Shown: positions 1 to 3,230 of the stretch, one piece after another
How positions within the stretch are numbered: the first letter of the stretch is position 1
How the letters are laid out: every line of letters begins with the position of its first letter
Source of the DNA: an uncultured delta proteobacterium
GTDB taxonomy: Bacteria; Desulfobacterota; Syntrophorhabdia; Syntrophorhabdales; WCHB1-27
NCBI GenBank assembly: GCA_963810935.1
Contig: CAWEPK010000010.1
Location: 160,001 to 224,000 of the forward strand
Length of the DNA: 64,000 bases
Direction: 5' to 3'
The notes under the pieces: generated by a model
The model's database searches: none
What the model was told of the DNA's origin: nothing
What the model saw: the letters and a program-made list of their open reading frames with translations, nothing else
Program-made: the position numbers and the translations under genes

Positions 1-256
1 TTGCCTTCGCAAAGTCCCTTACCTGCCTGGGGTTTACCACCACTACGGGGAGTTTGCGTAAGGCCAGGGTTTCTACTACAGGTATCTGGTACCCTCCGGT
101 GGCCTCCAGCACCACCAGCCCAGGGCGCGCATCTGAGAGGAACCGGCTGAGTTCCTTTCGTCCCTCATCATTGTTGAGGAAGCTCTTTTGCGTACCGGGC
201 GTAATGAAGACTTCCAACGTATCCTTTGCCACATCGATGCCTGCGAACTTTTCCAC
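1..256 (-). CDS. IS110-family DEDD recombinase/transposase, N-terminal part (runs off window start; not in ORF track)
   Basis: Manual translation from GTG at 256 (RBS AAGGAGG at 270-264): MEKFAGIDVAKDTLEVFITPGTQKSFLNNDEGRKELSRFLSDARPGLVVLEATGGYQIPVVETLALRKLPVVVVNPRQVRDFAKA. GIDVAK, LEATGGY and VNPRQVRDFAKA are IS110 RuvC-like domain motifs. Confidence 0.95.
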   Translation of the reverse strand, partial: MEKFAGIDVAKDTLEVFITPGTQKSFLNNDEGRKELSRFLSDARPGLVVLEATGGYQIPVVETLALRKLPVVVVNPRQVRDFAKA

Positions 257-260
257 TATC

Positions 261-440
261 GCTCCTCCTTGCGAAATGCGGGCTCATGAGGCCCAAGCAA
301 CTGTCCGAGCTTGTAGGGAATGGGGTGTGACGACCCGCGCTCGGCGCCGGGATCATATGTCCCAAGGGGGAATCGGCCTGTCACACCCTGATGCTTCCTG
401 GGATAAGTATAGTCAGATGACAGCAGGTAAGAAAACATGC
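261..440 (-). ncRNA. Putative bridge RNA (target-binding loop plus donor-binding loop)
   Basis: Target loop is closed by perfect stem GGGTGTGAC (388-380) / GTCACACCC (331-323), with internal hairpin GGGA..TCCC flanked by ATTCCCCCT and GCGCCGAG. Donor loop is closed by GCTC/GAGC, with internal hairpin GGGC..GCCC flanked by ACAGTTGCT and CGCAAG. 5' boundary is approximate. Confidence 0.85.
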
Positions 441-453
441 ATATAAGATACAA

Positions 454-500
454 GGGGGGAGGCTCCGCGGGCTTTGCCCGTGGAGGGGGCGCTGAGCCCC
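454..500. repeat. REP-like GC-rich hairpin at the IS110 insertion site, just downstream of glgX
   Basis: GGGGGGAGG-CTCCGCGGGC-TTT-GCCCGTGGAG-GGGGCGCTGAGCCCC: 10-bp stem with one wobble. Only one copy is seen in this window, so repeat status is inferred. Confidence 0.45.
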
Positions 501-510
501 AATAATTGTT

Positions 511-2622
511 CTATTCCCGCCTGCGCAGCACGATGAGCGACCGGCTTTCGGTCTCAATGCTCTGGCCGGCGTTGAACGTATCGGGCTCTTCTGCAAACTT
601 CCCTTCGTGGGTGGAGAAATTTTTTTCCCAGACCTTGCCCCATTTCCCCTCAGGAAGGGTGAATACCAGCTTTTCGTAGTGGGCATTAAGTATAAGATAG
701 AAGCTGTCGTCAACGATGCGCTGCCCGAATTCGTCCTGGTCGGGTATGGCCTGGCCTTCCAGGAAGACGGCCATCGATTTGGCGAAGCCTTCCTGCCACT
801 CGCCCTGCGTCATCTTCGTGCCGTTGGGGTTGAACCAGGCGATGTCCTCTATCTCGGAGCCTTCGACGGCCCCCTTGAACCACCTTGGACGCTGGAATAT
901 CTGGTGGTTGAGGCGGAAATGTATAAGACGGCTGGTAAAATAGATGAGGTCCCTGTCTGCCGCATCCCAGTCGTACCAGGAGATCTCGTTGTCCTGGCAG
1001 TAAGTGTTGTTGTTCCCTCTCTGGGTGCGGCCCATCTCGTCCCCGCCGGAGATCATGGGGATACCCTGGGAAAGGAGCAGGGTCGCGAGAAAATTCCTCT
1101 TCTGCTTCGCACGAAGCGCCAGCACGCCTGTGTCGTCCGTAGCCCCTTCGGCGCCGCAGTTCCAGGAACGGTTGTTGCTCTCCCCGTCCCTGTTGTCCTC
1201 ACCGTTCGCCTCGTTGTGCTTCTCATTATAGGAGACGAGGTCGGATAGCGTAAAACCGTCATGGCACGTATTAAAGTTGATGCTCGCGAACGGACGCCGG
1301 CCGGTACTCTCGTAGAGGTCTGAGCTTCCCATGATGCGGCCGGCCATTTCTGCCAGGGTGCACCCTTGGCCCCGCCAGAAGTCACGCACGCAGTCCCTGT
1401 ATTTTCCGTTCCACTCGGACCACAGGGGCGGGAAGTTGCCTACCTGGTACCCGCCTTCCCCGATATCCCATGGCTCGGCAATCAGCTTCACCTGCCCCAC
1501 TACAGGGTCCTGCTGGATGATATCGAAGAAAGCGGAAAGGCGGTCCACCTCATGCAGTTCCCTGGCCAGGGCGGCGGCTAAGTCGAACCGGAAGCCGTCC
1601 ACGTGCATCTCCAGCACCCAGTACCGCAGCGAATCCATGATAAGCTGCAGCACGTGCGGGTGGCGCATGTTAAGGCTGTTGCCGGTCCCCGTATAGTCCA
1701 TGTAGTGGCGCAGGTCGTCCGGGTTGAGCCGGTAATAGGCGGAGTTGTCGATGCCTTTGAAGCAGAGCATCGGCCCCAGGTGGTTCCCTTCGGCTGTATG
1801 GTTATAGACGACGTCGAGGATCACCTCGATGTCCTGCCCGTGCAGGTTCTTTACCATCTGCTTGAAATCCTGCACCTGCTGGCCCGCCTGCCCCCTGCTC
1901 GAATATTCGTTGTGGGGGGCGAAGAACCCTATCGAGTCATATCCCCAGTAATTGCGAAGTCCCCTCTCGATGAGGTGCTTCTGGTGGATAAACTGGTGCA
2001 CGGGCAGCAGTTCCACGGCCGTGACTCCCAGCCTTTTCAGGTATCCGACCACGGCCGGGTGCGCCAGGCCCGCGTAGGTGCCGCGTATTTCTTCGGGCAC
2101 TTCCGGGTTCCTGGCGGTCAATCCTTTCACGTGCGTCTCGTAGACTATCGTCTGCTGCCAGGGCACCCGCAGGGGCTCGTCATGGTCCCAGTCGAAGAAA
2201 GGGTTTACGACGATGCACTTTGGGACGAATCGGCCGCTGTCGTCCTCGTTCTTGCTTCCTTCCGGTTTGTCGAAATAGTAGGGAAAGACGGCCTGGTTCC
2301 AATCTATCTGGCCATCAATCGCCTTGGCGTACGGGTCGAGGAGCAGTTTTGCCGGGTTGCAGAAAAGGCCTTTCTCGGGCGCCCACGGGCCGTGAACCCG
2401 GAACCCGTACCTTTGGCCCGGCTCGATGTTCGGCAGGTAGCCGTGCCAGCAGAAGGCCGTTTTTTCCGGGAGGTCTACACGCCTTTCCCCGTGCGCCTCG
2501 TCGAAGAGGCAAAGCTCGACCCTCTCCGCTGTTTCAGAGAAGATCGAAAAGTTAGTTCCCGTCCCGTTATAGGTCGCGCCCAGGGGATATGGCCGCCCCG
2601 GCCAGACCTTGAAGAAACCCAA
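511..2622 (-). CDS. glgX: Glycogen debranching enzyme (isoamylase, GH13)
   Basis: 703 aa; PYPLGAT, NYWGY, DVVYNHTAEG, DGFRFDLA, AEPWD, CHDGFTL and NNNTYCQDNE motifs; TTG start with GGAGG RBS. Confidence 0.97.
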   Translation of the reverse strand: MGFFKVWPGRPYPLGATYNGTGTNFSIFSETAERVELCLFDEAHGERRVDLPEKTAFCWHGYLPNIEPGQRYGFRVHGPWAPEKGLFCNPAKLLLDPYAKAIDGQIDWNQAVFPYYFDKPEGSKNEDDSGRFVPKCIVVNPFFDWDHDEPLRVPWQQTIVYETHVKGLTARNPEVPEEIRGTYAGLAHPAVVGYLKRLGVTAVELLPVHQFIHQKHLIERGLRNYWGYDSIGFFAPHNEYSSRGQAGQQVQDFKQMVKNLHGQDIEVILDVVYNHTAEGNHLGPMLCFKGIDNSAYYRLNPDDLRHYMDYTGTGNSLNMRHPHVLQLIMDSLRYWVLEMHVDGFRFDLAAALARELHEVDRLSAFFDIIQQDPVVGQVKLIAEPWDIGEGGYQVGNFPPLWSEWNGKYRDCVRDFWRGQGCTLAEMAGRIMGSSDLYESTGRRPFASINFNTCHDGFTLSDLVSYNEKHNEANGEDNRDGESNNRSWNCGAEGATDDTGVLALRAKQKRNFLATLLLSQGIPMISGGDEMGRTQRGNNNTYCQDNEISWYDWDAADRDLIYFTSRLIHFRLNHQIFQRPRWFKGAVEGSEIEDIAWFNPNGTKMTQGEWQEGFAKSMAVFLEGQAIPDQDEFGQRIVDDSFYLILNAHYEKLVFTLPEGKWGKVWEKNFSTHEGKFAEEPDTFNAGQSIETESRSLIVLRRRE

Positions 2623-2831
2623 AGACGCCTCCGCTTGAGGGCTATCCGGTATAAAAAAACATAGGGCTCGCCGGATGCCGTTTCAACAGCTTCACTCCGC
2701 CCACCCCCTCCGTGACCGTTGCCTTTGCCTTCTTCCTTGACAGTTATTGGGCCGGTATTAGCTTTACCATAACAAATAGTTGAGGGCTCGAACGTCTGAT
2801 GCAATCCCCATCATTGCAAAGGAGAATATGA

Positions 2832-3230
2832 ATGGACAGAGGCCGGAAAGGCTTGTTTTCGGAAGCGGCGGTTGCGGTGTTCCTTGTCGGTATGCTCCTC
2901 ATCGCCGGGTGCGCCGGTGAAAAGCCCGTATCGAGTCTTAATAACGCCCAATATGCCATTCAAAGGGCGCATGACGCAAAGGCAGACCAGTATGCCTCCA
3001 CGGAAATGGGCATGGCGGAGGAAAAAATGGGCCAGGCAAGGACTGCTTCCGGCCATGAAGACTACGTCAGGGCGCGCCGACTGGCGGACGAGGCAAGGGC
3101 GGACGCAGAGGCAGCCGAGGCAAAGGCCAGGTCTCAGACTGCACAGCAGGAAGCCCGGGAGATGCAGAAGAGCGTGAACGACCTTCAGGCCAATATTTCC
3201 CCGCCCCCTGCGACCATGGGGGGAGAATAA
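2832..3230 (+). CDS. DUF4398-type lipoprotein
   Basis: Lipobox IAGC; Ala-rich helix (ARRLADEARADAEAAEAKAR); typical partner upstream of an OmpA gene. Confidence 0.8.
   Translation: MDRGRKGLFSEAAVAVFLVGMLLIAGCAGEKPVSSLNNAQYAIQRAHDAKADQYASTEMGMAEEKMGQARTASGHEDYVRARRLADEARADAEAAEAKARSQTAQQEAREMQKSVNDLQANISPPPATMGGE

Follow-up and report, generated by a model that had tools for sequence, protein, structure and literature searches.

We uncovered in the genome of an uncultured delta proteobacterium what is very probably (roughly 0.85 for the account as a whole) an IS621-type bridge recombinase element, IS-A, whose target guides are written for the C allele of a repeat of its host, and a paralog of which, IS-B, has been re-guided to a site 7 bp upstream in that repeat. 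Guide–target complementarity, insertion at CT with duplication of the core, a multi-copy and mostly intergenic target and retargeting among relatives can be read directly from the genomes. The window, i.e., the whole 64,000-nucleotide stretch that was analyzed, corresponds to C10:160001–224000, where C-numbers denote contigs of the genome under study (G000) and G001, G002 and G003 denote its congeners; the assembly is rated 93% complete and 7% contaminated. Positions 1–454 of the window are the left part of IS-A, an IS621-like IS110 element of 1,149 bp in full that spans C10:159306–160454 from CT core to CT core. Its recombinase gene, core and neighboring host gene are placed as follows:

1–256, minus strand: 5′ portion of the gene for the IS110 recombinase of IS-A; the gene continues to C10:159333 and codes for a product of 307 aa
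453–454, minus strand: CT core, found at both ends of the element
511–2622, minus strand: glgX, glycogen debranching enzyme (TIGR02100 over its cut-off)

The recombinase matches PF01548, scores 232 bits against NF033542 (cut-off 140) and has as its nearest solved relatives the chains of ISCro4 (E 5e-42) and IS621 (E 8e-40). It displays the DEDD RuvC domain and the C-terminal domain with a catalytic serine that are seen in IS110/IS621-like elements: its motifs D8/E51/D93/D96 (DEDD) and S231 (Ser motif) align with D11/E60/D102/D105/S241, the counterpart residues given for IS621 (PMC11208158). Likewise in keeping with this group, CT flanks both ends of IS-A, and an intact empty site is present in the congener G002 as the ortholog of the site occupied by the C7 copy. 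Upstream of the recombinase gene, the left end and the adjoining target are organized as follows:

257–452, minus strand: left end (LE), encoding the predicted bridge RNA; identical in the three full IS-A copies and covered by a two-loop consensus fold of nine relatives
251–320, minus strand: donor-binding loop, its closing stem formed by 320–307 with 264–251 in the consensus fold
266–267, minus strand: donor-loop handshake dinucleotide, pairing with target position 7 in 27 of 28 guide types, two compensatory changes among them
268–273, minus strand: right donor guide (RDG), by guide assignment in the IS-A left end
296–304, minus strand: left donor guide (LDG), which repeats exactly the element's right end together with the core and varies with the donor in relatives
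323–388, minus strand: stem-loop of the target-binding loop, from the fold
340–348, minus strand: right target guide (RTG), complementary to core and right flank at 8 of 9 bases
365–373, minus strand: left target guide (LTG) ATTCCCCCT, with 5/7 non-core matches (6/7 counting wobble) and covarying with the flanks across relatives
406–411, minus strand: internal −10-like hexamer upstream of the target loop, invariant at 5 of 6 positions in nine relatives while its surroundings vary
445–450, minus strand: −10-like hexamer, 17 bp from the right-end TTGACA upon circularization (computed spacing)
453–461, minus strand: left target (LT) together with the core; this is host repeat DNA whose position 7 (window 455) bears the C allele

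The consensus fold thus gives the left end, ahead of the coding sequence, the shape of a two-loop bridge RNA, and the donor guides fit the junction of the element's ends together with their handshake bases, both being traits of IS110/IS621-like elements. The fold, derived from nine close left ends, comprises 35 pairs, just two of them with two-sided changes, and the single IS-A left-end sequence folds no better than its shuffles (z 0.06). Rfam returned no match in window 1–3000 at E up to 1 and, over five loci, two chance-level matches far under the gathering scores. An upstream TACAAG was considered as a donor guide and discarded, as it sits in a stem and is unconserved. The closing stem of the donor loop overlies the ribosome-binding site and start codon of the recombinase gene in the nine-sequence consensus; it could couple translation of the recombinase to folding or binding of the bridge RNA, a regulatory role that we propose from this overlap. 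The joined ends of IS-A would read TTGACA, 17 bp and TATCTT, which is the junction-promoter trait as a sequence pattern, and such a promoter across the circle is known for IS621 (PMC11208160). No circle junction was seen among contigs from four DNA runs of one study, contigs being a form of data that drops rare molecules; the skipping joints in those contigs have short sides and are explained by other copies of the repeat. The hexamer at 406–411 is, by its sequence, a possible second promoter for the integrated state; a promoter scan called no full promoter there.

The central line of evidence is the agreement between the guides and the DNA that flanks the element. As originally predicted, the left guide fits its flank: on the minus strand, CTCCCCCCT at 461–453 is identical at 7 of 9 positions to ATTCCCCCT at 373–365. 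One of the two differences is a wobble (position 3, guide U over a bottom-strand G) and the other, at position 1, is a mismatch; position 1 agrees in just 5 of the 28 guide types and is thus probably hardly read. The original prediction gave this left guide correctly and missed the right guide at 348–340, which matches 5/5 at positions 10–14 in 3/3 IS-A loci, the C20 copy sharing the same right flank. The left match is weak by itself, with at least 5/7 non-core bases being matched by 1.5% of sampled genomic CT sites; combined with a 5/5 right-guide match, this falls to 4.9e-5 of 243,362 forward-strand CT sites. The suggestion that the G6 run in the flank had been over-called by one base did not survive scrutiny: the run is real at all three filled sites with an assembled left flank, and in G002 the site orthologous to that of the C7 copy is empty, with all six C present and its CT intact. 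Furthermore, two contigs from the four runs of one study cross the run gapless with no indel listed, these runs being possibly the source of the assembly and hence not independent evidence. A-type copies of the repeat normally have six bases separating the upstream CCT from the core; five is the B-type spelling.

The same relationship extends to relatives of IS-A, whose target guides covary with the insertion site in the manner of IS110/IS621-like elements. We collected 114 loci at ≥44% aa identity, in 47 of which both junctions were callable; removal of one mis-call and two duplicates left 44 loci with 28 distinct target loops. Over these 28 guide types, which are related by descent such that the shuffle counts are not probabilities, left guides match their own flanks at 127/196 non-core bases, against a mean of 76 and a maximum of 104 in 20,000 shuffles, and right guides do so at 107/140 (shuffle mean 41, maximum 65). 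Several rows of the automatic guide alignment, IS-B included, are one base out of register and were kept as they are. Two relatives, L104 and L017, fit their left flanks poorly. In L017 the last five bases of the left flank are the element's own donor end, and the left guide fits at just 1/7; this junction may be a half-match or tandem insertion product. Half-match insertion has been reported (bioRxiv 10.64898/2026.08.31.748434), and by analogy it is a possible reason for the left misfit of both L017 and L104.

The DNA recognized by these guides belongs to a modular repeat of the host, the window copy of which comprises:

455–507, no strand assigned: an A-type copy of the ~80-bp modular palindromic repeat, left half; its right half lies past the other end of IS-A, from C10:159305 downward
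463–485, plus strand: hairpin 2 of the repeat, the hairpin of the original prediction, with the better fold on the plus strand
486–500, no strand assigned: hairpin 1 of the repeat, from repeat alignment and fold

Hairpin 2 lies 3′ of glgX just as had been proposed, with three bases separating the end of the gene at its stop codon from the repeat. Rather than being single-copy, it recurs throughout the genome (150 blastn hits; 149 nhmmer hits), and by head and tail the repeat copies divide into 77 A/A, 46 B/B, 4 filled and 23 mixed or unresolved. The midpoints of 120/150 copies fall outside ORFs of at least 150 codons, such ORFs covering 81.6% of the genome. Because the 85 parsed copies of hairpin 2 present, on the element's strand, 55 A·C vs 8 G·T oppositions, its fold is kept on the strand opposite to that of the element. 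A survey with an exact degenerate pattern of the repeat confirmed its restriction to the lineage: it was found in 19/21 other genomes of the family, in 6/14, 1/2 and 0/3 genomes of the order's other families, and, outside the order in the same phylum, in 2/386 genomes with one match each.

The original description of the repeat as REP-like stands for its high copy number, palindromic structure, extragenic location and lineage restriction, all of which are REP/BIME traits, and falls for the terminal tag and the RAYT features. The consensus of 45 A-type copies, 79 bases long, has neither a terminal GTAG nor a terminal CGTC tag, B-type copies carry CGTC within hairpin 1 and never at an end, and no RAYT gene was found in this 93% complete assembly. 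A RAYT as the mobilizer of the repeat was rejected, since the nine PF01797 matches are seven copies of one IS200-type element, scoring 133 bits as IS200 (cut-off 55) vs 24 bits as RAYT (cut-off 80). The repeat hence behaves like a REP/BIME yet lacks two of the membership features. We found no description of it in the literature covered here, though supplementary target tables may still list the element or its target, and the single match from a plasmid collection, to an empty copy of the repeat, was weak and partial. The repeat is modular, with extra hairpin modules inserted in or trailing the unit and joined at A/T-rich ends; its hairpin loops on one strand are mostly AAA or GAA, and the genome's repeat arrays disclosed no mobilizer. 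Its presence varies between congeners. Neither repeat nor element follows glgX in G002, which is 92–94% identical on both sides; there, ~270 bases of unrelated DNA (L186) stand in place of the G000 repeat cluster and element, such that the cluster replaced, or was replaced by, other DNA. As for an empty glgX allele, G001 and G003 gave just weaker, probably paralogous matches, and none is listed among the contigs from the four DNA runs. The IS200-type element mentioned above is ~650 bp long with subterminal hairpins; its seven copies (L006–L014; two frameshifted), on contigs C3, C5, C7, C8 (two), C12 and C16 of G000, each follow TAATT, and 4/7 abut the AATTA end of the repeat vs 72/2,366 such sites (binomial 3e-5).

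Empty copies of the repeat had been expected to have C beside the core, but most of them have G: position 7 of the 63 empty A-type sites is G in 42, C in 16, A in 3 and T in 2. Because most empty copies carry G at this position, IS-A fits only a minority of the repeat copies. Filled IS-A sites have C there in 3/3 cases vs 16/63 for empty ones (p = 0.016, or 0.064 if two are independent), and in a three-copy array of G002 position 7 is C in the copy whose G000 counterpart is filled and G in both of its neighbors. The left guide of IS-A and its donor-loop handshake base both call for this C. Among the relatives, L018 and L127 supply the two compensatory changes at the handshake, as U:A and A:T pairs, and pairing between donor position 7 and the handshake base of the target loop holds in 28/28; the same pairing logic is described for IS621 (PMC11208158; PMC13626964). 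The few sites at hand suggest that C at position 7 is required and that IS-A would be limited to the C-allele minority of A-type copies.

Other copies of the element sit at the same CT, as anticipated: IS-A occurs in four copies with identical ORFs, the three complete ones being identical over 1,149 bp; all four share the right flank, and 3/3 with an assembled left end share the left target, the left end of the C20 copy falling in an assembly gap. The C7 site has a syntenic empty ortholog in G002 with the exact target, and another module is inserted ahead of that target; the C10 site is syntenic with G002 on both sides. The C18 site is probably not an independent insertion site: of the three genomic occurrences of a rare hairpin arm, it and C10 account for two; on its left lies a segment that the assembly contains in triplicate; the array in G002 that is the ortholog of its right flank carries G at position 7; and synteny with G001 and G002 breaks at the element. 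The triplicated segment, ~5 kb at 98–100% identity (C18:4158–9571, the end of C2 and the end of C5), ends at the repeat in two of its three occurrences; it could reflect a repeat- or IS-mediated rearrangement, a strain mixture or a mis-assembly. Higher read depth on IS-A than on its flanks was not used, since depth is no copy number.

The paralog IS-B (L002; G000 C8:756069–757216) is a fifth copy, 81% identical to IS-A in aa sequence, in which the donor guides are as in IS-A and both target guides are rewritten. It sits at another CT of the same repeat, 7 bp upstream of the IS-A register, and an IS-B-type copy in the congener G002 shares its left junction. The repeat base that counts as position 7 for IS-A becomes position 14 for IS-B, and the right guide of IS-B reads G there; 22 empty copies carry the IS-B core context. 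The left target of IS-B lies in the right arm of hairpin 2, whereas that of IS-A (455–461) is outside the hairpin (463–485). IS-B fits its own left site poorly, with two mismatches, and a search for an empty ortholog of its site gave no match in 3/3 congeners. Cross-mobilization between IS-B and IS-A is plausible from their sequences. More broadly, 8 of the 10 guide types at ≥69% aa identity with both junctions lie in this repeat family, going by our reading of the flanks; these eight elements have seven different right guides, which track the tail variant of the repeat, and of the remaining two, one is inserted in a different palindromic repeat and the other in unrelated DNA. Among more distant relatives in the order, insertions are seen at a repeat that looks CGTC-tagged. 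The relatives L202, L206, L209, L212, L219, L226 and L230, and L045 and L114, have switched to other palindromic repeats: one, in G442/G443, looks CGTC-tagged, and another is rich in the word CCCTC.

Taking these observations together with the IS621 precedent, we propose the following route. IS-A would be excised or copied out as a circle, in which its two ends meet at the CT core and create a sigma-70 promoter; going by the sequence and by IS621, this promoter would drive transcription of the bridge RNA from the left end. The target loop would pair with both halves of a 14-bp site in the host repeat and the donor loop with the circle junction; the handshake G of the donor loop would then pair with the C at target position 7 after strand exchange, following the mechanism described in PMC11208158. 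A recombinase tetramer would exchange strands at CT, splitting the repeat and duplicating CT, by a chemistry modeled on IS621. The circle, the junction promoter, the tetramer and the strand exchange are all taken over from IS621 by analogy. Insertions would presumably be tolerated, since the ~150 repeat copies are mostly intergenic. The C beside the core would be needed for both the left guide and the handshake G, confining IS-A to C-allele copies, and IS-B, with the same donor guides, would use target guides for the second CT 7 bp upstream, where the neighboring base is C and the majority G is read by its right guide. The original prediction had gone further in viewing the repeat as a multi-copy “safe harbor”: the multi-copy, lineage-specific and intergenic nature of the target bears this out in part, and the “safe harbor” itself is a conceivable interpretation, because guide choice, an effect of the hairpin and survival of intergenic insertions are inseparable from genomes alone.

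Could the preference for the repeat be mostly survival bias, wherein any good guide match is hit and the intergenic insertions persist? Such filtering would be consistent with the 28 strict sites that have at most one mismatch to the IS-A guide, 24 of which are outside the repeat, 23 of those 24 in long ORFs. Against this, 6/8 perfect IS-A sites genome-wide, with wobble allowed and position 1 ignored, are within the repeat, and because the repeat makes up just 0.47% of the genome the IS-A guide is sufficient to explain the preference. Moreover, the presence of 8 of the 10 closest guide types in one repeat family, with differing right guides that track its tail variant, indicates guides shaped by the repeat; we consider survival bias unlikely as the main cause. 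That guide pairing is needed but insufficient, and that the repeat hairpin acts as a structural gate in an added layer, most likely for IS-B, is a tentative but real possibility. It is favored by the location of the IS-B left target in the right arm of hairpin 2, akin to the target stem of ISPpu10 as described in bioRxiv 10.64898/2026.03.19.712850, by the strand-biased wobble pairs of that hairpin, and by the 12 best strict guide matches of IS-B, 0/12 of which are in the repeat, yet both known left junctions are there. On the other hand, the IS-A left target is outside hairpin 2, the C7 site has the extra module before its target, and the IS-A guide by itself already favors the repeat; further, the better matches outside the repeat are mostly in long ORFs (IS-B 11/12, IS-A 23/24), which loss of harmful insertions fits equally. 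The IS-B guide alone does not explain the repeat preference, and for this element a hairpin gate and survival bias are indistinguishable from genomes.

It is also conceivable that some sites were filled by homologous recombination or gene conversion, or reflect assembly error, with their flanks being copied rather than chosen by the guides. The C18 site invites this reading, with its chimeric-looking hairpin shared with C10, its triplicated left flank, its synteny break relative to G001 and G002 and the G allele in the G002 array, as does the contamination rating of the assembly. However, the syntenic empty ortholog of C7 has the exact target, C10 is syntenic on both sides in G002, and independent relatives obey the same guide–flank rule; we judge copied flanks to be very unlikely. 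Guide-directed insertion by an IS621-type recombinase stands as the preferred reading.

A more far-reaching, speculative and on balance improbable extension is that the bridge-RNA clade and the repeat family are co-evolving at single-base resolution, with the C/G position gating IS-A twice, IS-B having escaped by its 7-bp register shift and relatives having retuned their right guides to the tail variants. Were this true, the repeat would be a contested landing pad, used too by the IS200-type element, and the set would be a natural system for following the evolution of guide reprogramming. The findings leave the known bridge-RNA mechanism unchanged. They confirm the IS621-type route to intergenic DNA via host-repeat guides in an uncultured lineage remote from E. 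coli and Pseudomonas, and add a natural pair of paralogs that share their donor guides yet address one repeat in different target registers, two compensatory handshake changes that arose in nature, and close recombinases with many different right guides. As such, they offer good test material for natural bridge RNA reprogramming and for whether hairpins gate targets.

Insertion of IS110 elements into REP sequences has long been known (IS621, ISPa11, ISPpu9 and ISPpu10; PMC1525189), and natural guide–target covariation was the founding evidence for bridge RNAs (PMC11208160). The targeting of a REP-like repeat by IS-A is thus a further instance of established IS110 behavior. The parts of the literature covered here contain neither the repeat family itself nor two paralogs that use different registers and opposite alleles of one repeat; the evidence for this register and allele twist consists of two solid IS-A sites and two junctions of IS-B. 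The best solved relative of the IS-A recombinase, that of ISCro4 (PDB 9t56), has aligning catalytic motifs and is distant in sequence. With IS621, as presented in PMC11208160 and PMC11208158, IS-A shares the recombinase with its DEDD RuvC and serine Tnp parts, the CT core, a predicted left-end bridge RNA with LTG, RTG, LDG and RDG, handshake bases, the junction-promoter pattern, an intergenic palindromic repeat as target and tolerance of wobble in the left target. Unlike IS621 as described there, it has other guides and another donor, an unrelated ~80-bp modular repeat of another lineage as its target, and a left end with a conserved internal −10-like hexamer and without a clear 5′ stem-loop in the nine-sequence consensus.

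The nearest parallel in terms of natural history is provided by ISPpu9 and ISPpu10 of Pseudomonas putida KT2440. There too, one genome carries two IS110 elements with every copy in the same REP-like repeat (PMC1525189), with a 2-bp duplication and a target stem-loop adjoining or overlapping the left target (PMC1525189; bioRxiv 10.64898/2026.03.19.712850). By these accounts, ISPpu9 and ISPpu10 use one position of one repeat in one genome, whereas IS-A and IS-B are 7 bp apart and read opposite alleles of one repeat position; in contrast to ISPpu10, the left target of IS-A is outside the hairpin, while that of IS-B forms a hairpin arm. The repeat, for its part, resembles the GTAG- and CGTC-tagged REP/BIME sequences described in PMC3733652 and PMC6006769 in having >100 extragenic, palindromic and lineage-restricted copies, in forming arrays with other hairpin modules and in varying between congeners. 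The classical REP of these papers is 21–65 bases long, consists of a single short stem whose foot bears a terminal GTAG or CGTC tag, and is associated with a RAYT (TnpA-REP) gene flanked by the repeats; the repeat targeted by IS-A and IS-B differs in being longer, with two to three hairpins per unit, no terminal tag and no RAYT found in the assembly.
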